A DNA stretch of 64,000 nt from Nitrososphaerota archaeon (GTDB taxonomy: Archaea > Thermoproteota > EX4484-205 > JAAOZP01). The position numbers and the translations under genes are program-made. The stretch covers positions 64,001-128,000 of the forward strand of contig JAAOZP010000017.1 of NCBI GenBank assembly GCA_011605725.1, given 5' to 3'. The notes beneath the pieces were generated by a model, which was not told the origin of the DNA, did no database searches, and worked only from the letters and a program-made list of their open reading frames with translations. This document shows positions 32,809 through 42,958 of this stretch, piece after piece. The first letter of the stretch is position 1, and each line of letters starts with the position of its first letter.

Positions 32809-33825
32809 GTGAAGGAGGCTGTTCTCTGGCATAAAGAAGGAGATAGATTAAGATGCGACTTATGTGGCAGACGTTGCCTAATAGCAGACGGGGCTTTAGG
32901 CGTATGCCTCGTAAGGAAGAATATTGACGGGAAGCTTTACAGCCTGAACTATGGCAGGCTTGTAGCTCTACACGTTGACCCGATTGAGAAGAAGCCGTTG
33001 TTCCATTTTCAGCCTGGAAGCTTCACTTTCTCAATAGCCAGCGCCGGGTGTAACTTTGCATGCAGGTTTTGCGATAACTATGATATAAGCCAGGTTTATC
33101 GTGACAGGAAGCTGGAGCAGGTTCTTGGCGAGGAATATACTCCGGAGGATGTTGTTAACCAGGCTTTGTCAGAAGGCTGCAGGATAATAAGCTATACTTA
33201 CACTGAGCCAACAATATTCTTCGAGTTCGCCTACGATACTGCCAGGCTTGCTCACGAGAAGGGTATTAAGAATACTTTCGTCACTAACGGTTACATGACG
33301 CCTGAAGCCGTTAAAATGATTGCACCATACTTGGATGCCGCTACCGTGGATTTCAAGTGCTCAGGAGACCCTGACTGCTACAAGAAGATAATAGGCGTAC
33401 CAGATGTAGCGCCAATATATGAGTGTCTGATCGAGATGAAGAAGCAGAATATTTTCATCGAAATCACAAACCTAGTTATTCCAGGATTTGACGATGAAAT
33501 GTCTAGTTTTAAGAATCTAGTCAAACGGATTAGAGACAATCTTGGTGACGAAATCCCCATACATATACTCAGGTTCTTCCCGGCGTACAGGTTCTCAGAC
33601 ATTCCAGAAACACCACTAGAAAGTCTTAGAAAAACATATGAAATCGCTAGGAAAGAAGGAATGAAATTTGTTTATCTAGGGAATGTTCCGGGTCAGGGTG
33701 AGAATACTTACTGTCCGAGCTGCGGAGAGCTTTTGATCGAAAGATTCGGATTGATGATGAGCCGTAACAGGCTTAAAGGAGACAAATGTCCTAAATGCGG
33801 GACAAAAATACCTGTCGTCATATAA
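32809..33825 (+). CDS. amrS: AmmeMemoRadiSam-type radical SAM enzyme
   Basis: N-terminal Cys motif, DPIEKKPLFHF, CNFACRFC, YTYTEP, C-terminal CPSC/CPKC. Confidence 0.9.
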   Translation: MKEAVLWHKEGDRLRCDLCGRRCLIADGALGVCLVRKNIDGKLYSLNYGRLVALHVDPIEKKPLFHFQPGSFTFSIASAGCNFACRFCDNYDISQVYRDRKLEQVLGEEYTPEDVVNQALSEGCRIISYTYTEPTIFFEFAYDTARLAHEKGIKNTFVTNGYMTPEAVKMIAPYLDAATVDFKCSGDPDCYKKIIGVPDVAPIYECLIEMKKQNIFIEITNLVIPGFDDEMSSFKNLVKRIRDNLGDEIPIHILRFFPAYRFSDIPETPLESLRKTYEIARKEGMKFVYLGNVPGQGENTYCPSCGELLIERFGLMMSRNRLKGDKCPKCGTKIPVVI

Positions 33826-33826
33826 T

Positions 33827-34477
33827 CTAGCTACTCGTAAATATGCCTCTTGATTCCAGGAGTTGTTTCACCCTCTTCTTTCTCGACAATTCCTCCCTTT
33901 CTATTTCCTCCAGCTTTGACATTATCTTCTTCCTCTGGAGAGAAAGACCCGGGATTAAAACATGATCCAATGCTTTAGACCTTATTTCTATCTTTTTAAG
34001 TTCCTTGGTTAAAAACCTCTGGCGAACAGAAAGGTTAACATAATGTATTAGAGTGGTTTTGAAAAACTCATGCATCAACTCTGAGACCTGGTCGAGACTC
34101 TCGCTCGTCTCGAAAGGAGAGTATCCTCTGTCCTCTATCTTCGGAAGGCTTTTAGAATAAGAGATCTTGGGCATTAAGACCCCCTTTAAATTGTCCCATG
34201 TAAGACCTACATCGTCCAGCCTAGTTGTGGCCGCTGCAGCCCTTTTTACAATGTCTTCACCAAGCTCTTCTTCAACCTTATCTAGAAGCCCGTATATTCT
34301 AGGTAATTCTGTGTTAATTTTTATCGCAATCCCTTTGAGCTCGTCTCTGTTTTTAAGAAGCTCTTGATTAAGCAGTTGATATCTTTGTTTCAGAATCCTC
34401 GAGCTTCTAAGAGCTACGTTGAGTAGCTTATTCAGCTTAATCAGTTCGTACCTCGTAGGTTTAAAGACTAGGCTCAT
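33827..34477 (-). CDS. atpD: A/V-type ATP synthase subunit D (divergent)
   Basis: KPTR.EL.KL, L..E.....R..AL.HVLIP, LEE.EREE. Confidence 0.85.
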
Positions 34478-35799
34478 TTTAGAACAGAAAGCACGTCTAA
34501 CCCGAGATTTAAGGTTTCATCTATGCTTCTCTCTTCGTAGGCTCCTTGATTGATAAACTTTCTTTCAAAAACCTCAGAGAATTTAACATACCTCCTCTCT
34601 TCAGCCGTTAGAGCATCTTCGCCGAGTATCGTTGAAAGCTCCTTATTTCTTAAGCCTTCAGCATACGCTGATAGAAGGCGCGTGTAAATCTCAAAATGGT
34701 CTTTCCTCGTATACCCTTCACCAACACCATCCTTCATTAACCTAGATAATGATGCTAGAACGTTCATAGGCGGATAAATCCCGGAAAGATGTAGACTTCT
34801 GTCTAGAACTATCTGACCCTCAGTTATGTATCCGGTTAAATCCGGTATAGGGTGAGTAATATCGTCGTCCGGCATACTTAATATCGGCATCTGCGTTAAG
34901 GAGCCGTTTTTCCCAGAAACTATTCCCGCCCTCTCATAAATGCTTGCTAAGTCAGTATACATATAACCAGGATACCCTCTTCTGCCAGGTATCTCTCCCC
35001 TAGCTAGGCTAGCTTCCCTTAATGCTTCACAATAGTTACTCATATCGCTCATTACAACTAGGACATGATACTCTTTTTCGAAGGCAAGATACTCCGCTAT
35101 GGTTAATGCGACCCTAGGAGCAATGATTCTTTCAATAGTTGAATCGCTTTGAAGATTCAATATGAACACTGTCCTATCCAACACATGTGCTCTCTCCAAC
35201 TCCACGCGGAAGAAATCTGCTTCCTCATAAGAAGCCCCAAGCGTCAGGAAAACAACCGCGAAGGATTCCTGTTTTTTCAGAAGCTTAGCCTGTCTAACTA
35301 TTTGGGAAACAATCGTGTTATGTGGTAGGCCATAGGCGCTGAAAACCGGCAGTTTCTGACCTCTTATCAGGGATGATAAACCATCTATGGCTGAGATCCC
35401 GGTTTGAATAAAATCCCTAGGGGGTGAACGCGTCACAGGGTTTATCGGGTAACCGTTTACATCAAACTTTTCGCCAAAAATATCCGGCCCACCGTCGATT
35501 GCGTTGCCCATACTGTTCAAAACTCTTCCGAAAACCTCTTCACTCACAGGGATTCTCAAAGTGTCTCCTGTAAATCTGACGTAGGATCTGCCTATTGAAA
35601 TTCCAGCTGTGCCCTGCATAACCTGAATAACAGCAGCCCTCCCTTCCACTCCTATCACCTGGCCGAGTCTAGTTTCACCATCGACATCTATTTCCACGAT
35701 CTCGTTCAGCTTCACGCCATGAACATTATCAACTATTATCAAAGGCCCATTTATTGCTACGATGCTCCTGTATTTTACTGGTTTAGCCATACTGAGCAT
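34474..35799 (-). CDS. atpB: A/V-type ATP synthase subunit B
   Basis: [46 protein letters not shown]. Confidence 0.97.
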
Positions 35800-37558
35800 T
35801 CACCGGTCTCTGCAGCTCTGAGAATTTTCCAATAATCCTTTCTTTAATCTGTGTCGCCGCATCAATCAACTTATCCAGAGGCAGACGCTTAAGCTCCAGT
35901 ATTTCCCTGTTTATATTTGGGTCAAGAGCCCTTTCTAAAGGAATGTTGTTTGAAACAGCTTCAAACAAATGTTCCCTGTAATAATCGATTACCTCGGCAA
36001 TCATAATGGTCTTTCTAGGATCCGAGTAAGCATCTTTTTCGTCGAGGGCGCTTTGCTTCAGAAAAGCCTCTCTAGTTAGTGTTGAGACCTCTATAACTGC
36101 TCTTTCACGATCACTTAGAGCACTAATCCCCATTAACCTTACTATTTGCATCAACTCGTCCTCCTCTCTTAAAATGCTTAACATATTTTCCCTGAGGATC
36201 TTCCATTTTTCGCTCACGTTCAACTCCCACCAGAAGGCGACGTTCTCCAGGTAAAGAGAGTAGCTTTGCAGCCAGTTTATAGCTGGGAAATGGCGTCTGT
36301 AAGCCAATTCTGAATCCAGAGCCCAGAATACTTTTACTGTTTGAAGAGTCTTCTGGGTAACAGGCTCGCTGAAGTCCCCGCCTGGTGGAGAAACCGCGCC
36401 CATTATCGTTAATGATCCTACCCTGCCGTTTAAAGTGGTGACCTTACCCGCTCTACTGTAGAAGCTTTGGAGACGTGAAGTAAGGTATGCGGGGAAACCT
36501 TCTTCCCCTGGAAGCTCTTCCATTCTTGAACTTAACTCTCTAAGGGCCTCAGCCCACCTGGACGTGGAGTCGGTGATTAAAACAACATTATAACCCATAT
36601 CCCTAAAATACTCGGCAAAAGTTATCCCTAGGAATATGCTTGACTCTCTGGCTGCAACAGGCATATTGCTAGTGTTGGCTATTATTATCGACCTCTCCAT
36701 TAACGGTCTACCGCTTCTCATATCAATCAGGCTCTTGTATTTCTCTAAAAGATCTGCCATTTCGTTACCTCTTTCCCCACAGCCGACATAAATCACCACA
36801 TCAGCGTCAACTTGCTTTGAAACCTGCTGTAGAGTCATCGTCTTACCTGAGCCGAATGGCCCGGGGATTGCTGCAGTACCTCCTTTAGCTATAGGAAACA
36901 TGAAATCTATGATCCTTACTCCAGTTATAAGCGGCTCATCAGGATCCAGTTTCTCCCTAAACGGCCTAGGAACTTTAACGGGCCATTCATGCGCCATCTT
37001 AACATCTAATACTTTTCCCTGAGAATCCTTAACCTCGGCTATCTTGTCAAGGATCGTGTAGTCTCCCTCGTTAGCCAAGTAAACCAGGTTCCCTCTAACA
37101 TTCGGGGGAACGAGAATCATATGCGTTAGTGATTTTGTCTCCTCAACCTTTCCAATCACCTCCCCTCCAAACACCTGGTTCGGAGGATTATCCACAGGTA
37201 TGAAACGCCATTTCTTCTCATGGTCAAGTCTTCTCGTACGCACACCCGCCTTAACGAATGAATCTGCCTGCTTAACAATTTCTTCAAGAGGCCTTTGCAG
37301 CCCATCGTATACTTGAGTCAACAAACCTGGACCAAGCTCGGCGGAAAGTAAACGACCTAGCGCTACAACCTTCTCCCCGTATCCGAGGCCACTAGTATCC
37401 TCATACACCTGTATGAAAACCCTGTTTACGCTAATTCTATTCACCTCACCTATTAAACCCTTTTCACCTATTAAGACAACTTCCCCCATGATAGGCGATG
37501 GAATGTCTTCAGCAATGACTACAAACCCCGAGACTTTTATAACCTTTCCTTCTCTCGT
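35783..37558 (-). CDS. atpA: A/V-type ATP synthase subunit A (catalytic), probable ACG start at 37558
   Basis: [42 protein letters not shown]; the conserved N-terminal [12 protein letters not shown] lies upstream of the first ATG (37489). Confidence 0.95.
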
Positions 37559-37565
37559 TGTGTTT

Positions 37566-37775
37566 TCACCTCCTCCTGGGGATCCTAATTAGAATCGGTA
37601 GATCCTTATCATAATCGTAAGGATAGTATTCGTCCGCCACCAGGAAGACGCAAACATCTTTGCTTTCCTTAACTATTCTTAAAACATCCTCCCTGCTTGC
37701 TACTACCTTTCCCCTTATTCCCGCTAACGAGAAAGCAACCACTGTTCTCTCATCACCTAAAACTTCTATTTTCAT
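37566..37775 (-). CDS. atpF: A/V-type ATP synthase subunit F (short, 69 aa)
   Basis: MKIEVLGDERTVVAFSLAGI, P.LI.IP; lies between C and A. Confidence 0.85.
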   Translation of the reverse strand: MKIEVLGDERTVVAFSLAGIRGKVVASREDVLRIVKESKDVCVFLVADEYYPYDYDKDLPILIRIPRRR

Positions 37776-37777
37776 TC

Positions 37778-38524
37778 TCAAACTACACCTCTTTTTCCAA
37801 TCATACATTCATGCGATACTATAAAGTCCATGAGTCCCGCGAACCCAGAATCATAGTTTTTACAAACACTACGATAGTAGTTTTGCAAGCTAATCCTATC
37901 TCTAACCCCATACAGTTCAAACATTCTTTCAGCCAGCTTCTGCTCGTTCATAAGGTCTTTAACAGACAGTAGCCCACATGGTATGAAGAATCTTTCAAAA
38001 TCCGAAACCCTCTTCAGGAGTCTTAGATTTAACAGATCCACCTTGACTGCTACGAGCATTTTAGCAAGCTCGTCGTCTGGCTTTTTGGGAAGAATGTTGC
38101 TAAACCATGAAAAGTAGAATTTATCAATGTTAGAGGCGAAATCGCTGTAACTAACAAGGTTTTCAAAATCCTCTCTCCTCATACCGTCGAAAGTATCTGA
38201 TAGAAGGCCCAGTAGTCCCGTTATGTCTCCATTGCTCACTATATCTAGCAATCTCTCTTTTCTAATCCTTATAAATGGTCTTGAGAATTCGTATCGAACA
38301 CCCCCAAGTATTTGTGCAATAGCATCCTTTATGTTTTCAAAATCATTTCTCAAAATCCACCATTCTACAAAGGGTCTCGCATCCTCCGGGAGGAAATCGA
38401 TCAGATTCAACAATCCAGAGTAAAGTATAGAAAGCCTCTCCCTTTCTCCTTCAGCTGAACGTAATCGAGTATCTAAAAAGGTTAACCTGGTTTCCACGTA
38501 GGAGTAATTACCAGTCTCCAGCAT
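37778..38524 (-). CDS. atpC: A/V-type ATP synthase subunit C/d (short, divergent)
   Basis: Y.YV.TR, DFENIK, IDKFYF, VDLLNL, FIP.G motifs; operon position. Confidence 0.7.
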   Translation of the reverse strand: MLETGNYSYVETRLTFLDTRLRSAEGERERLSILYSGLLNLIDFLPEDARPFVEWWILRNDFENIKDAIAQILGGVRYEFSRPFIRIRKERLLDIVSNGDITGLLGLLSDTFDGMRREDFENLVSYSDFASNIDKFYFSWFSNILPKKPDDELAKMLVAVKVDLLNLRLLKRVSDFERFFIPCGLLSVKDLMNEQKLAERMFELYGVRDRISLQNYYRSVCKNYDSGFAGLMDFIVSHECMIGKRGVV

Positions 38525-39146
38525 TCAGATCACCAAAAATAAGATTATAAAGTTCTTCTCTTATTGTTTTATACTGAAGTTTAATTCTATTCTCAATTGT
38601 TTCATCAACTTCTTGAAGGCTGTCTCCAGAAACTATTACTACCCCACCTACGGTTGTTAAATCCGGAATTATCTTAAACCTTTTTCCATCGTAAGGCTTG
38701 ATGAGATGTTTAACTATCTTCTCGTCTCTTTTGTCGATATGAAGAATTATTTCTTCTCCGCTAACCATATCGAGAGCATTGGCTATGGCTTTCGATAGAA
38801 AAGCCTTATAACGCTCCTCTTGCTCCCTTATCTTTTGAAGAGCAGAAATAGCGGCGGAGATTATAGAGTCGATTAAGCTCCACACATGGTCATAAACTCT
38901 TTTCCTATACTCCATTTTTATTTTTATAAGTTCCTGCTCCTTAAACCTTTCTAAATCCTCTACTCCTTGCTTGATTAATTTTCTTTTTTTCTCTTCAGCA
39001 TTTTTCCTAGCGCGGGCAATAATTTCTTCAGCATTCCTCCTCGCTTCGCTAAGCATTTTTTCTCTAACTTCTTCAGCCTGTTCCAGTATTCTTCTCGAAA
39101 TATTTTCAGAAGCCTTTAAAGTCGTCAGAATACTTGAGTCGTTCAT
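38508..39146 (-). CDS. atpE: A/V-type ATP synthase subunit E
   Basis: Long N-terminal coiled coil, GGVVI.S.D....D.TIE.R. Confidence 0.85.
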   Translation of the reverse strand: MNDSSILTTLKASENISRRILEQAEEVREKMLSEARRNAEEIIARARKNAEEKKRKLIKQGVEDLERFKEQELIKIKMEYRKRVYDHVWSLIDSIISAAISALQKIREQEERYKAFLSKAIANALDMVSGEEIILHIDKRDEKIVKHLIKPYDGKRFKIIPDLTTVGGVVIVSGDSLQEVDETIENRIKLQYKTIREELYNLIFGDLNAGDW

Positions 39147-39481
39147 GCCTCCAGCACCCTTTTTATAACCAGTTCAACACTCTCGTTTCTCTTATCGTTA
39201 ATGATTTTTTCAAATCTTTTTAAAAAACTTTGAAGTTTCTCTTCACAAGATTTTCTATAGTTCTCGATTTCACTCTCAACCTTCTTCTCATATCTCTTAA
39301 CCTCTTCCTCCGCCTCTCTGTCGGCTTCAACTTCTATTTTAACAGCTTCTTCCTCAGCCTCCAGTATTATTTTATCAGCCTCCTTCTTAGCATGTTCAAT
39401 AATGCTCTTAGCCTTCTCCTCGATTTTCATCAGGTTCTCCAATTCTCTGTAAAAATCTTCCTCCCGAATAAAAGTTGTCAA
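39143..39481 (-). CDS. A/V-type ATP synthase subunit H/G (peripheral stalk)
   Basis: 112-aa charged coiled coil (A..II..A..EA..I) ending V.LVI..V; inside the operon. Confidence 0.72.
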   Translation of the reverse strand: MTTFIREEDFYRELENLMKIEEKAKSIIEHAKKEADKIILEAEEEAVKIEVEADREAEEEVKRYEKKVESEIENYRKSCEEKLQSFLKRFEKIINDKRNESVELVIKRVLEA

Positions 39482-39482
39482 A

Positions 39483-40181
39483 CTAAAGCATCCCCACTCC
39501 TCTTAGAAGCAGGATTGCGACAAGCAGACCGTATATTGCTATGCTTTCAATCAAGACGACAAAGACGATACTTTTACCGAACGAGTCTTCATCCTTTAGG
39601 AGAGAGGAAATCGCCTTTGCACCTGTTTTACCTAAATAATAGCCAGAGCCACCAGTTATGCATACGACTATTGAGGATACTAATGAGGTGTATGCAGAGA
39701 CGCTGTCAACCTGATGAGGCACTCCAGCCCCACTAAGTAAGCCAACCCCTCTTATTATCACTATCGAGACCAGAAGACCATATATCACTATGCTTTCAGG
39801 TAAAACAGTAAATATCAAAGATTTTCCGAAAAGTTCCTCCCTCTCGCGTATAGCGCCTATGGCGGCTGAACCAGCGATCCCTATGCCTAAGCCTGAGAAT
39901 AAGCCGGTTAAGCCGACTGATAAACCTGATCCGAGTAAGGATATTGAGGTGTTGAAGTCATTCACATTGCTTCCATTCATTATTAGAAAGAGAGCTACTA
40001 GTAGGCCATAAATAACAGGTGTCTCAGCAAGAACAGTGAAAACCAAGGCTAACCCGAATCTCTCAGGCTTCTCCGCAATCATTCTTGAGCTTACTGAAGC
40101 AGTCATAGCAATACCGAGTATAGACCCTACTCCTGAAAAGCCGATAGCGGACAGCACGGAGATCAGCGTGAGTACATCCAT
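39483..40181 (-). CDS. atpK: A/V-type ATP synthase proteolipid K/c, triplicated (three hairpins, six TM helices)
   Basis: Three repeats ending LAETPVIYGLL, LPESIVIYGLL, LIESIAIYGLL. Confidence 0.92.
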   Translation of the reverse strand: MDVLTLISVLSAIGFSGVGSILGIAMTASVSSRMIAEKPERFGLALVFTVLAETPVIYGLLVALFLIMNGSNVNDFNTSISLLGSGLSVGLTGLFSGLGIGIAGSAAIGAIREREELFGKSLIFTVLPESIVIYGLLVSIVIIRGVGLLSGAGVPHQVDSVSAYTSLVSSIVVCITGGSGYYLGKTGAKAISSLLKDEDSFGKSIVFVVLIESIAIYGLLVAILLLRGVGML

Positions 40182-40206
40182 TTCACATAGCCTTCTATGT
40201 TTTTAA

Positions 40207-42048
40207 CTATGGGAATGACAATGGTTTAAAAACATTTCCCGTGGGCTCGAAAAACTTACTGAAAAACTCGACGAAATGAAGCCTTAAAGAATGGGCAAAC
40301 GCGATGAAACTCTCTATGAAAACTATGAAAAAGTGGGTTATTAACAGTATTATGCCGCCTGCCAGTAGGCCAAAGACCCCTCCTGAGAATAGTAATGGAG
40401 AAGCGAGAAGCGTGAATGCTCTCGATATTCCAGCATGAGATATGTTTATAGCGACTATCCTAGCGTATGAGACTACGTTGCTCACTAGCCTAGTAACCTC
40501 CATCAGATTTCTTGGATTAACTATCGTCAAGAGAATTAGGCCTGAGGCAGCGAATATTGAGCCGGAGTAAAGGTAGAAATCTCCATTCAAGTATTGTAAA
40601 TAGTACAGTAGGATTATGATTGAGCCGTGAAGTATCATGAGCCAAGCTAGTTTTTCTCCGAATGCGTTTTTCAACCTTTTCATTATAAGCTCGTTTACAA
40701 AGCCTATTGCAAGGCCTAACGTGAGCTGAATGACTCCGAGCAATATTGCTATTTGAAGGAAATACATCGGGTCTTCAAACCCGTTAAACCATATGACAGG
40801 TATTTTTATCGCATCACCCATGAATTCTCCTGTGAGAAATCCGAAGACTATTGAGGAAATGCTTATCGTAACCAGTATTTCGCTCAGCATCTTACCGTTA
40901 TGGCTTCTACTACCCAATCCCCGGTAGAGCAATAGCGAGAAGGTTAGAAGCAATATACCGTCGAAGACATCTGCAAACATTAATCCAAAGAATATCGCGT
41001 AAGTCAATGATAAAAACGGGGTTGGATCTATCTGCCTATAACCAGGTGCTCCGAACATTAGCATTATTGTTTCGAAGCTCCGGATAATCGGAGGGTTTTC
41101 AAAAGCGACCGGAGGATCATCCCATTTTTCAGGATCCTCGACTGAAAGCTCATAATTATATCCTTTTTTAAGCGTGGAAATAAGCTTCTCTAAATCTTTT
41201 TCTTTAACCCACCCTTCTAGATACGTGGAGGATCCTTTTCTGACGATTTTTTCTTTAGCCTCCAGTATTTCAATTCTTTTTAAAAGAACTTTTCTAAGTA
41301 AGAATATCTGTTGCTTCAGCGAGTTTACATCGACGATTTCCTCGATATCTTCAACCTCCTCGGTTTCAATCCCCTCCTTTTCCTCGGAAAGACTTGCAAC
41401 ACCGTAGCTGCTTAAAGCCCCCTCTAGGATTGAAAGGTTTTGAACAAGAGTAACGATCTTTACTTTGAAAACACCTTTTAAGACTCCGGATTCATTTAGT
41501 GAGACTAGACACTCCTTTCTAACAGACTCCGGTATTATTTCGATAAACCTATCTATGCTGCTCCTATTAATCCAGCCTTCCCATATGATCAGGTAGTCTG
41601 TCCTCCTGGTTCTTCTCAGCACGATAATGTTATTCTTCAATAGGGATGATATTCTTAGAGAAAGCTGTTTCTTTGTAGAAAGCTTCATCATTCTAAGTTT
41701 CTCTAATTTGTTAAGCTTATCCTCAGCATTGTTTAAAATACTTTGAGCATCAGCATAGATTTCATCCTCTTCCTCATCAGAAAATCCGATGCTGACGCCT
41801 CTTCCAACCAACTGGGCTATAATTCCTTCTTTAGGAAGCTTGTTCAATATAGTGTCACATCTTCTAACAAGGTTCAACAAGCCATTCTTCTCCACACTTA
41901 TATTAACATCTTTGTTAAATCCTGAGAGATTCTTTTCCACAGTCTTCACCTGTAATATCGCGAGCTTGCCTACTTCCCTTAGAAATCTATCTTCCTGCTC
42001 AGCGGGAAGCAGCAGTTTCACTTTCTTCATCCTAGCGGGCCTAAACAT
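40207..42048 (-). CDS. atpI: A/V-type ATP synthase subunit I/a
   Basis: MFRP..M.K, EGWV, DPTP....IFFGLMFAD, essential Arg in VSYARI, LRLHFVEFFSKF. Confidence 0.93.
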   Translation of the reverse strand: MFRPARMKKVKLLLPAEQEDRFLREVGKLAILQVKTVEKNLSGFNKDVNISVEKNGLLNLVRRCDTILNKLPKEGIIAQLVGRGVSIGFSDEEEDEIYADAQSILNNAEDKLNKLEKLRMMKLSTKKQLSLRISSLLKNNIIVLRRTRRTDYLIIWEGWINRSSIDRFIEIIPESVRKECLVSLNESGVLKGVFKVKIVTLVQNLSILEGALSSYGVASLSEEKEGIETEEVEDIEEIVDVNSLKQQIFLLRKVLLKRIEILEAKEKIVRKGSSTYLEGWVKEKDLEKLISTLKKGYNYELSVEDPEKWDDPPVAFENPPIIRSFETIMLMFGAPGYRQIDPTPFLSLTYAIFFGLMFADVFDGILLLTFSLLLYRGLGSRSHNGKMLSEILVTISISSIVFGFLTGEFMGDAIKIPVIWFNGFEDPMYFLQIAILLGVIQLTLGLAIGFVNELIMKRLKNAFGEKLAWLMILHGSIIILLYYLQYLNGDFYLYSGSIFAASGLILLTIVNPRNLMEVTRLVSNVVSYARIVAINISHAGISRAFTLLASPLLFSGGVFGLLAGGIILLITHFFIVFIESFIAFAHSLRLHFVEFFSKFFEPTGNVFKPLSFP

Positions 42049-42163
42049 CCCGAGAGAATACGGGGACGAGTATTTAGGATTTTACGATGCTTCTTAAGGC
42101 TCTCCTTAAAAAAGGGACAACGATAACTATTAAATACCTTTCTAAGGGTTTCCTACTCTAGCC

Positions 42164-42958
42164 TTGGGGACAGTATGCGTCATCGGAGCCGGGAAAATGG
42201 GCAGCATGATAGTTAGAAGCATTGTTAAAACTGGTGATTATAGGGTGGTTGCGACCGACGTCGACCCCAGTAGACGGATGCTTGTTAAATCATACGGGGC
42301 GGAGGTTTTCGAAAGCAATAGGGATGCTGTGAAGAGTTCCAACGTAATTATTCTTGCTGTCAAGCCAAAGGATGTGCCGGTTGTGGTGACTGATATTAAG
42401 GACCTGATAAGCGGGAAACTCGTAATATCGATTGCTGCAGCAGTACCTTTAAACCGTATGGAGAGTATTGCTCCAGACGCCAGGTTCATCAGAGTAATGC
42501 CGAACATACTTATTGAAGCCGGCGAAGCGTTCATCGCGATATGCCCCGGCTCAAGAGCAACAGAAGAGGATTTTGAAACAGCTGTAAGAATCTTCGGGAG
42601 GATGGGTGAGGTGGCTAAGATTGATGAGAATCTGATGGATGTGTTAACAGGTTTCTCGGGAAGCGGCCCGGCCTATGTATTCACCATTATGGATGCTTTT
42701 GCCGACGCCGGCGTGAAGATCGGCCTGCCGAAGGAGCTCGCTCTAAGAATCGCTGCAAGAATGATGCTTGGCTCCGCTAAAATGGTGTTAGAAGGGAAGG
42801 GTAGGCCGATGGAGCTTAGAGACATGGTTGCCACTCCCGGGGGTACAACAATAATGGGGATTTACGAGCTGGAGAAAGGAGGCTTAAGGGCATTAATAAT
42901 GAATGCTGTAGAAGCAGCTGTTAAGAGAGCCAGGGAATTGTCAGAATCATTCTCCTGA
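42164..42958 (+). CDS. proC: Pyrroline-5-carboxylate reductase
   Basis: IGAGKMG, LAVKP, RVMPN, SGSGPAY, V.TPGGTT. Confidence 0.95.
   Translation: MGTVCVIGAGKMGSMIVRSIVKTGDYRVVATDVDPSRRMLVKSYGAEVFESNRDAVKSSNVIILAVKPKDVPVVVTDIKDLISGKLVISIAAAVPLNRMESIAPDARFIRVMPNILIEAGEAFIAICPGSRATEEDFETAVRIFGRMGEVAKIDENLMDVLTGFSGSGPAYVFTIMDAFADAGVKIGLPKELALRIAARMMLGSAKMVLEGKGRPMELRDMVATPGGTTIMGIYELEKGGLRALIMNAVEAAVKRARELSESFS

Follow-up and report, generated by a model that had tools for sequence, protein, structure and literature searches.

Among described enzymes the natural comparison for the system discussed here is the canonical A1AO ATPase of archaea, of the Methanosarcina mazei, Pyrococcus/Thermococcus and Methanocaldococcus type, with nine genes in the order H-I-K-E-C-F-A-B-D. 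The best solved counterparts are structures of the V/A-ATPase of Thermus thermophilus (6ly9, 8ywt, 1v9m and 3a5c), an enzyme with a single hairpin in its ring subunit. A further group, the sister clade in our trees, is formed by A-type operons of Bathyarchaeia, which are uncharacterised loci in metagenome-assembled genomes (MAGs), e.g. CP070773, CP070826 and JBDRQD010000038. We report here on an A-type ATPase operon with the order I-K-H-E-C-F-A-B-D from a hot-spring Nitrososphaerota archaeon (assembly GCA_011605725.1, contig JAAOZP010000017.1). The 64,000-nucleotide stretch analysed (positions 64,001 to 128,000 of the forward strand) is referred to as the window, and coordinates given without a prefix are positions in it.

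We conclude, with a probability of about 0.8, that this operon encodes the single archaeal A-type (A1AO) rotary ATPase/ATP synthase of the organism, and that it is a streamlined, lineage-specific subtype restricted, as far as found, to Brockarchaeota-like genomes. Public records call the MAGs that carry it Candidatus Brockarchaeota, or Thermoproteota with some obvious mislabels. A V/A-type ATPase was reported in most of the Brockarchaeota genomes of De Anda et al. (PMC8065059), where it is mentioned only, and we found no description of the peculiarities of the operon in the literature.

The operon and its subunits

Nine minus-strand open reading frames (ORFs), overlapping or at most 25 nt apart, run from 42048 to 33827, and every one scores above the Pfam gathering score for its own subunit family. 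The gene set and order given in a first-pass annotation, made from the sequence alone, are thus borne out by Pfam for nine of nine genes, and its coordinates and lengths are correct as well. With NCBIfam models the A and B subunits reach 785 and 660 bits respectively, and the accessory subunits fall far under the equivalog cut-offs and so are diverged.

The catalytic subunit is encoded by atpA (35783-37558; 591 aa if an ACG start, discussed below, is used), which has the ATP-synt_ab domain and the A-specific insert (PF16886, 90.7 bits). Its P-loop GPFGSGKT is at residue 210 and GERGNE at residue 238, in the numbering of the 568-aa form. The non-catalytic subunit B (atpB, 34474-35799, 441 aa) is of the same ATP-synt_ab family, and the motifs of the A3B3 head are intact, as the first-pass annotation had it. 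Its description of subunit D as strongly diverged was overstated: the atpD product (33827-34477, 216 aa), a central-stalk subunit, matches Pfam ATP-synt_D over the full profile at 96 bits (E 3e-27). For the stator/ion-channel subunit I (a), encoded by atpI (40207-42048, 613 aa), Pfam V_ATPase_I gives 94 bits and the NCBIfam models align to residues 1-610. It retains the motifs SYARI (residue 527) and SLRLHFVEF (587), which we take to be those of the conserved stator arginines. The peripheral stalk is represented by a G-like subunit H (atpH, 39143-39481, 112 aa, TTG start; V-ATPase_G_2 at 30.8 bits, cut-off 28) and by subunit E (atpE, 38508-39146, 212 aa; vATP-synt_E at 66.5 bits over the full profile). 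The ring subunit K (atpK, 39483-40181, 232 aa) has three ATP-synt_C stretches with 151 bits. The remaining two genes encode a miniature rotor socket subunit C (d) (atpC, 37778-38524, 248 aa; vATP-synt_AC39 at 50.8 bits, partial profile) and a truncated central-stalk subunit F (atpF, 37566-37775, 69 aa from an ATG adjoining the C stop; ATP-synt_F at 27.5 bits).

All the canonical parts are thus present: an A3B3 head with intact motifs, a D-F shaft, E-H stalks, an I stator and a K ring. The A/B pair and the c/K gene of the operon are the only ones in the whole 2.23-Mb assembly, which is 93% complete. The same nine subunits make up the canonical A1AO enzymes, with which A and B are 53-56% identical and with which the A-specific insert and the catalytic motifs are held in common. 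The differences are that H here lies after K and not before I, that C and F are about 100 and 30 aa shorter respectively, and that F has no C-terminal helix. As judged from the sequences a new kind of machine is not revealed, and the mechanism would be normally rotary as far as anything suggests.

Subunits C and F

For a background survey the ORFs of about 100 A/V-ATPase loci were classified with jackhmmer, the background sample including loci from a metagenome scan with the A protein P0031, which picked up a generic A-subunit pattern and gave only loci of 48-55% identity. The C proteins of the survey have a median length of 346 aa and a 10th percentile of 321, against 248 here, and the F proteins, of which none is under 84 aa, a median of 105, against 69 here, so that both subunits had rightly been called unusually short. 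The short C belongs to an isolated family. A profile of it run against 1.84 billion representative proteins found two 50%-identity clusters (248 and 251 aa) and one fragment, and canonical C proteins (343-363 aa) match that profile only at E 1e-6 to 1e-4. Searched by sequence against solved structures the profile gave no match, and here fold comparison alone identified the C protein; nor did a metagenome scan with P0133, from the deeper short-C cluster, find a relative.

In the case of C the AlphaFold model (pLDDT 79.6) has strong structural matches to subunit d/C chains only, 14 in number with Z 10.7-14.3, the next match being at Z 4.7, and thus agrees with the all-helical funnel fold of that subunit. 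They include yeast 8eau_d and Thermus 6ly9_M and 1v9m. With the Thermus chains 231-244 residues align at Z 12.8-13.8 and 15-16% identity, the Thermus C being 323 aa in length. Compared by profile with the C of Bathyarchaeia (hhalign, 94% probability), our C lacks some 25 residues at the N terminus and about 45 aa at an internal gap, and its last third is shorter and unaligned. Because the structural alignments cover the chain from end to end, the model shows a subunit C (d) that is predicted to be compacted throughout, to some 70% of the usual size, and not to have lost one domain.

In the case of F the model (pLDDT 92.9) superposes on residues ~1-80 of the 91-104 residues of solved F subunits from Enterococcus hirae, Pyrococcus furiosus and Thermus, with Z 8.9-9.6 (9.3 for 2qai of P. 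furiosus and 8.9 for Thermus, whose F of 104 aa has the C-terminal helix). It has no counterpart to the C-terminal segment of those proteins, residues ~80-104. The modelled F is thereby shown as reduced to the N-terminal alpha/beta domain, in agreement with the first-pass annotation, in which the C-terminal helix was already said to be missing. We regard this as a deviation within the A1AO family and no ground for excluding the operon from it. Both the C and the F family have many invariant columns.

Few machines of life are as conserved as the rotary ATPases, and natural variants show which of their parts can be spared. Here C can lose about 30% of its length, and F its C-terminal helix, with the operon still intact across two families, and the compact C and F are a target for structural work on the coupling of shaft to ring.

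A link of the small C to the triplicated K was considered and rejected, because Bathyarchaeia with the same type of K carry a full-size C; it is within the Brockarchaeota clade that C and F became small.

The C proteins of Bathyarchaeia have a peculiarity of their own. All seven C (d) proteins found beside a triple-hairpin K start with a hydrophobic segment of about 20 residues (L068:14645-15715, L069:14738-15802, L072:9869-10939, L073:5326-6393, L074:3504-4565, L076:11926-12972 and L078:14730-15794), whereas canonical soluble C/d proteins and the Brockarchaeota C are without it. This segment may be a membrane anchor on the rotor socket.

Subunit K and the coupling ion

The first-pass annotation can be added to with regard to K, which on its sequence is a covalent triple hairpin keeping all three ion-binding glutamates, one in the second helix of each hairpin (AETPVIYG at 52, PESIVIYG at 128 and IESIAIYG at 211). 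Across 19 triple-hairpin K proteins the glutamates of hairpins 2 and 3 are invariant and that of hairpin 1 nearly so. Such a K is not unique to the clade, as it is found in Bathyarchaeia (45-50% identity) and Micrarchaeota (about 35%) with Glu at the same positions. The triplicated K of Methanocaldococcus jannaschii, studied by Ruppert et al. in 1999, is said to have only two carboxylates, against three here. Archaea are known to have c subunits of 1, 2, 3 or 13 hairpins (PMC9171764). The loss of carboxylates seen in V-type subunits, which leaves one per two hairpins, is not found in this K, where three of three hairpins have Glu, and with a carboxylate retained in every hairpin the ring has an undiminished ion/ATP ratio.

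For the coupling ion we used the Na+ motif of Mulkidjanian 2008 as applied in the ProAD survey (PMC11738941). In a manual alignment of the three hairpins the motif is incomplete, the helix-1 position being Ser, Ile or Tyr and not Gln, and its other parts, E-T/S and the Tyr at +5, are present. With the helix-1 Gln missing in every hairpin, H+ is the probable coupling ion, and the ProAD rule would call this K H+-specific.

Relatives, gene order and phylogeny

We compared the 26 species genomes of the order, in which the genome of the window is G000. Seven have this type of ATPase, three have a different A subunit and 16 have none. The six other carriers belong to two families, G006, G007 and G016 being of the same genus and G021, G022 and G024 of the other family. 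In all of them the gene order is the same and all nine frames are intact. Lengths are also closely similar among the carriers, being 245-249 aa for C, 69-72 for F, 231-232 for K, 212-214 for E and 210-219 for D, and H, always in the same position, has 112-114 aa except for 129 in the longest ORF called for G006. In G021 and G024 there is a 1036-aa open frame that could be taken for an A-B fusion, and this was rejected as there is a stop codon between A and B, both of which lie in one frame.

The gene order was rightly noted as unusual, since in the background survey I-K-H-E-C-F-A-B-D occurs once and H-I-K-E-C-F-A-B-D 27 times. The single case is a Bathyarchaeota locus (L077) which, like the partial L074, is colinear with our operon and yet encodes a C of 353 aa and an F of 90 aa. 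The triple-hairpin-K loci of Bathyarchaeia mostly have I-K convergent with H-E-C-F-A-B-D, and thus share with our operon the three-Glu triple hairpin and the detachment of I-K from H. They differ from it in having a C of 348-356 aa with the hydrophobic N-terminal segment and an F of 84-90 aa, and their A is just 47-48% identical to that of Brockarchaeota.

The phylogeny places A and B inside the archaeal A-type radiation, in trees that contain no named V-type references from bacteria or eukaryotes. When a tree of A is rooted by its B paralogues, the Brockarchaeota clade comes out as sister to the Bathyarchaeia enzymes with triple-hairpin K (SH-aLRT 87), and in a tree of concatenated A and B with 80 taxa a branch with SH-aLRT 98 sets these two groups apart from all others. 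The Brockarchaeota stem in the latter tree is long (0.61). The unusual gene order would thus go back to an arrangement like that of Bathyarchaeia, with I-K already away from H, and the present order would have arisen by movement of the I-K unit to a position in front of H.

With an isolated C family, six further genomes and this long stem, the proposal of a distinct conserved subtype with a remodelled rotor foot stands up well. The result is mixed on the points by which it could be judged: the operon is the sole one in the genome and its relatives share its lengths and order, and in the A+B phylogeny it does not group with the described complexes.

Parts of the operon were correctly seen to be AT-rich, but the effect is modest: its GC content is 0.420, whereas the rest of the window has 0.457 and the genome 0.464. 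GC3 is below the genome ORF mean in all nine genes. Part of the AT-richness is due to H and E being rich in Glu and Lys, which make up 23-39% of their residues. Codon adaptation is ordinary, and in the five further lineages that were compared the GC of operon and flanks goes together.

Presence and absence at one site

In G000, G006, G007 and G016 the operon lies between a gene for a radical-SAM protein (32809-33825, plus strand; Pfam Radical_SAM) and proC, for pyrroline-5-carboxylate reductase (42164-42958, plus strand; Pfam P5CR_dimer and F420_oxidored, and synteny). In G002, G003, G004 and G010 the same two genes are 84-153 bp apart and the operon is absent. G002 keeps the atpI-proximal spacer block up to ~6-8 nt from the start codon, and because of this we see its empty site as the result of deletion rather than as a site that preceded insertion.

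A tree of five flanking proteins mixes carriers and non-carriers, with the groups (G000, G002, G016), (G010, G006) and (G008, (G009, G007)), and its well-supported branches force at least three changes of presence and absence. For the four carriers of the genus the operon gives the same quartet as the flanks, (G000, G016 | G006, G007). The simplest history is that the operon was ancestral in this part of the genus and then underwent repeated precise deletion. The comparison shows it to be a dispensable trait at one fixed site, cleanly deleted at least three times among congeneric species.

At the operon site of G008 (L061:3196-3761) and G009 (L060:2798-3341) there are 544-566 bp that are unrelated to the operon or to the spacer ends of the other genome, which suggests replacement rather than simple deletion at these two sites.

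Energetics and direction of operation

A search of the same 93% complete assembly for PF00361, PF00146, PF00346, PF02508 and PF03977 found none, that is, no complex-I/Mbh/Mrp-like, Ech/NuoH, NiFe group-4/Nuo 49-kDa, Rnf or Na+-decarboxylase subunits. Membrane pyrophosphatases (PF03030) number two in this genome and at least one in each of the 16 other genomes of the genus that were searched. A P-type H+-ATPase of the plasma-membrane type (TIGR01647) scores above the curated cut-off in three of the four carriers in the genus (G000:C20:59348-61519, G007:C46:57538-59760 and G016:C6:17097-19307) and in none of the 12 genomes of the genus that lack the operon, a co-occurrence that, the genomes being related, does not amount to a statistical test.

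From this gene content ATP-driven proton export or membrane energisation in a fermenter appears most likely and is favoured over synthesis, because no primary pump was found in a genome that has two pyrophosphatases as well as the P-type H+ pump. The enzyme would hydrolyse ATP derived from fermentation to energise the membrane or expel protons, with ATP synthesis still mechanically possible.

The ProAD survey (PMC11738941) raises the open question of how free-living prokaryotes that are without rotary ATPases energise their membranes, and the repeated clean loss of a sole ATPase in close relatives that all keep their H+/Na+ pyrophosphatases bears on it. It is tempting to see in the Brockarchaeota a natural knock-out series, in which free-living congeners of almost the same synteny keep or have precisely deleted their sole ATPase and always keep pyrophosphatases, in which membrane energisation would be independent of the rotary ATPase, and in which the smallest C and F found would represent a minimal rotor foot. 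We put this forward as a doubtful proposal only.

Alternative explanations

Several points weigh against our interpretation. The direction of operation and the coupling ion are read from gene content and motifs, one carboxylate per hairpin would give the high ion/ATP ratio that is typical of synthases and not of dedicated pumps, and with the assembly at 93% the remainder of the genome could still encode a pump that was missed. As its stem is long, the clade's placement as sister to Bathyarchaeia could be influenced by long-branch effects. Within the genus A and B are 78-87% conserved, against 85-94% for flanking housekeeping genes, and distances of A between congeners come close to those between families; either a relaxed constraint or an ancient exchange of operon alleles could account for this.

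The alternative of most weight concerns function, namely that the enzyme is mainly an ATP synthase, with pyrophosphatases or the efflux of end products building an H+ or Na+ gradient that is used to make ATP, so that fermentation would yield more ATP in carriers. A coupling of fermentation to the membrane potential by the ATPase is proposed by De Anda et al. (PMC8065059), the pyrophosphatases are universal in the genus, and the Glu in all three hairpins of K leaves the ion/ATP ratio at its full value; at a low driving force ATP can be made even with c subunits of the V type (PMC9171764). However no redox- or decarboxylation-driven pump was found in the genome, the ATP-consuming P-type H+ pump that co-occurs with the operon fits proton export better than import, and most congeners dispense with the operon. 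We see synthesis as a real possibility, though somewhat the less probable of the two functions, and continue to favour ATP-driven export by the organism's single A-type enzyme.

The other two alternatives concern the origin and state of the operon. The first-pass annotation raised the possibility of a second specialised ion pump or of a horizontally acquired enzyme, which taken together would mean an acquired second pump beside a canonical enzyme, and the patchy distribution (seven of 26 genomes of the order), the GC and GC3 slightly below those of the rest of the genome, the within-genus distances almost as large as between-family ones, and the two congeners with a different A subunit of 50-54% identity could be taken to favour it. 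The idea of a second pump is already largely refuted, as a genome search for a further A/B pair or K gene found none. Recent acquisition is not supported either, in view of the ordinary codon usage and the grouping with ATPases of the related class Bathyarchaeia; in addition four congeners have the operon at the same site with the operon quartet equal to the flank quartet, the GC of the operon goes with that of its host in the five other lineages compared, and the atpI-proximal block retained by G002 points to deletion and not insertion. Taken as a whole this origin is unlikely. We think it more improbable still that the operon is decaying under relaxed selection, and that erosion and not design is what the shortened C and F, the rapid evolution and the start of A at a codon other than AUG reflect. 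It is true that the operon has been deleted repeatedly in the genus, that on the path from G000 to G016 A+B has a distance of 0.33 and the flanks 0.12, making A+B about 2.7 times faster, and that three species have ACG in place of ATG at the start of A. But seven genomes of two families have nine intact frames and subunits shortened to the same extent, the catalytic motifs as well as those of the stator and the ring are retained, the predicted folds of C and F are confident and their families have many invariant columns, and in the three species with ACG that codon lies behind a perfect GGAGGTGA and the peptide upstream of the first ATG is conserved.

Translation start of subunit A and other observations

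The A frame extends 23 codons upstream of its first ATG (at 37489, giving 568 aa) to the ACG at 37558-37556. There is no in-frame ATG, GTG or TTG for these first 23 codons, which are conserved at the protein level. The NCBIfam subunit A alignment begins at profile position 25. The ACG aligns with the ATG (MREG...) of G016, of the other family and of several database proteins. The species with ACG at this position are G000, G006 and G007, and in each it sits 5-7 nt behind the perfect GGAGGTGA, which overlaps the F stop codon; in the window this region is 37556-37573, minus strand. In genomes with an ATG start of A the Shine-Dalgarno sequences are weaker.

Upstream of atpI an A/T-rich block GTATTTAGGATTTTACGAT (42070-42088, minus strand, 22-40 nt from the gene) is a candidate TATA/BRE promoter. 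The block is conserved in G006 and G016 and still present in G002, which lacks the operon.

With regard to the annotation of public records, Brockarchaeota-type operons are filed as 'Nitrososphaera sp.' and 'Thaumarchaeota archaeon', and an archaeal A-type operon is found in a 'Candidatus Desulfaltia sp.' MAG (L065, L066 and L074), all apparent mislabels.

The genomes G015 (L050, C56:1-8194) and G009 (L049, C110) contain, on short contigs, pieces of a different A-type ATPase in which A is 50-54% identical to ours and H-E-I is divergent from A. In G015 it adjoins two Mrp/Mbh-type antiporter-like genes (PF00361). It could be a second energy module or a binning contaminant.

Palindromes of (GC)n were sought at the joints of the operon deletions and none was present in the empty sites. 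The palindrome TAGCGCGCGCTA occurs once, within TATAGCGCGCGCTACG, in the atpI-proC spacer of G016 (L045:12177-12316), where the stretch replaces what is ordinary sequence in G000 and G002.

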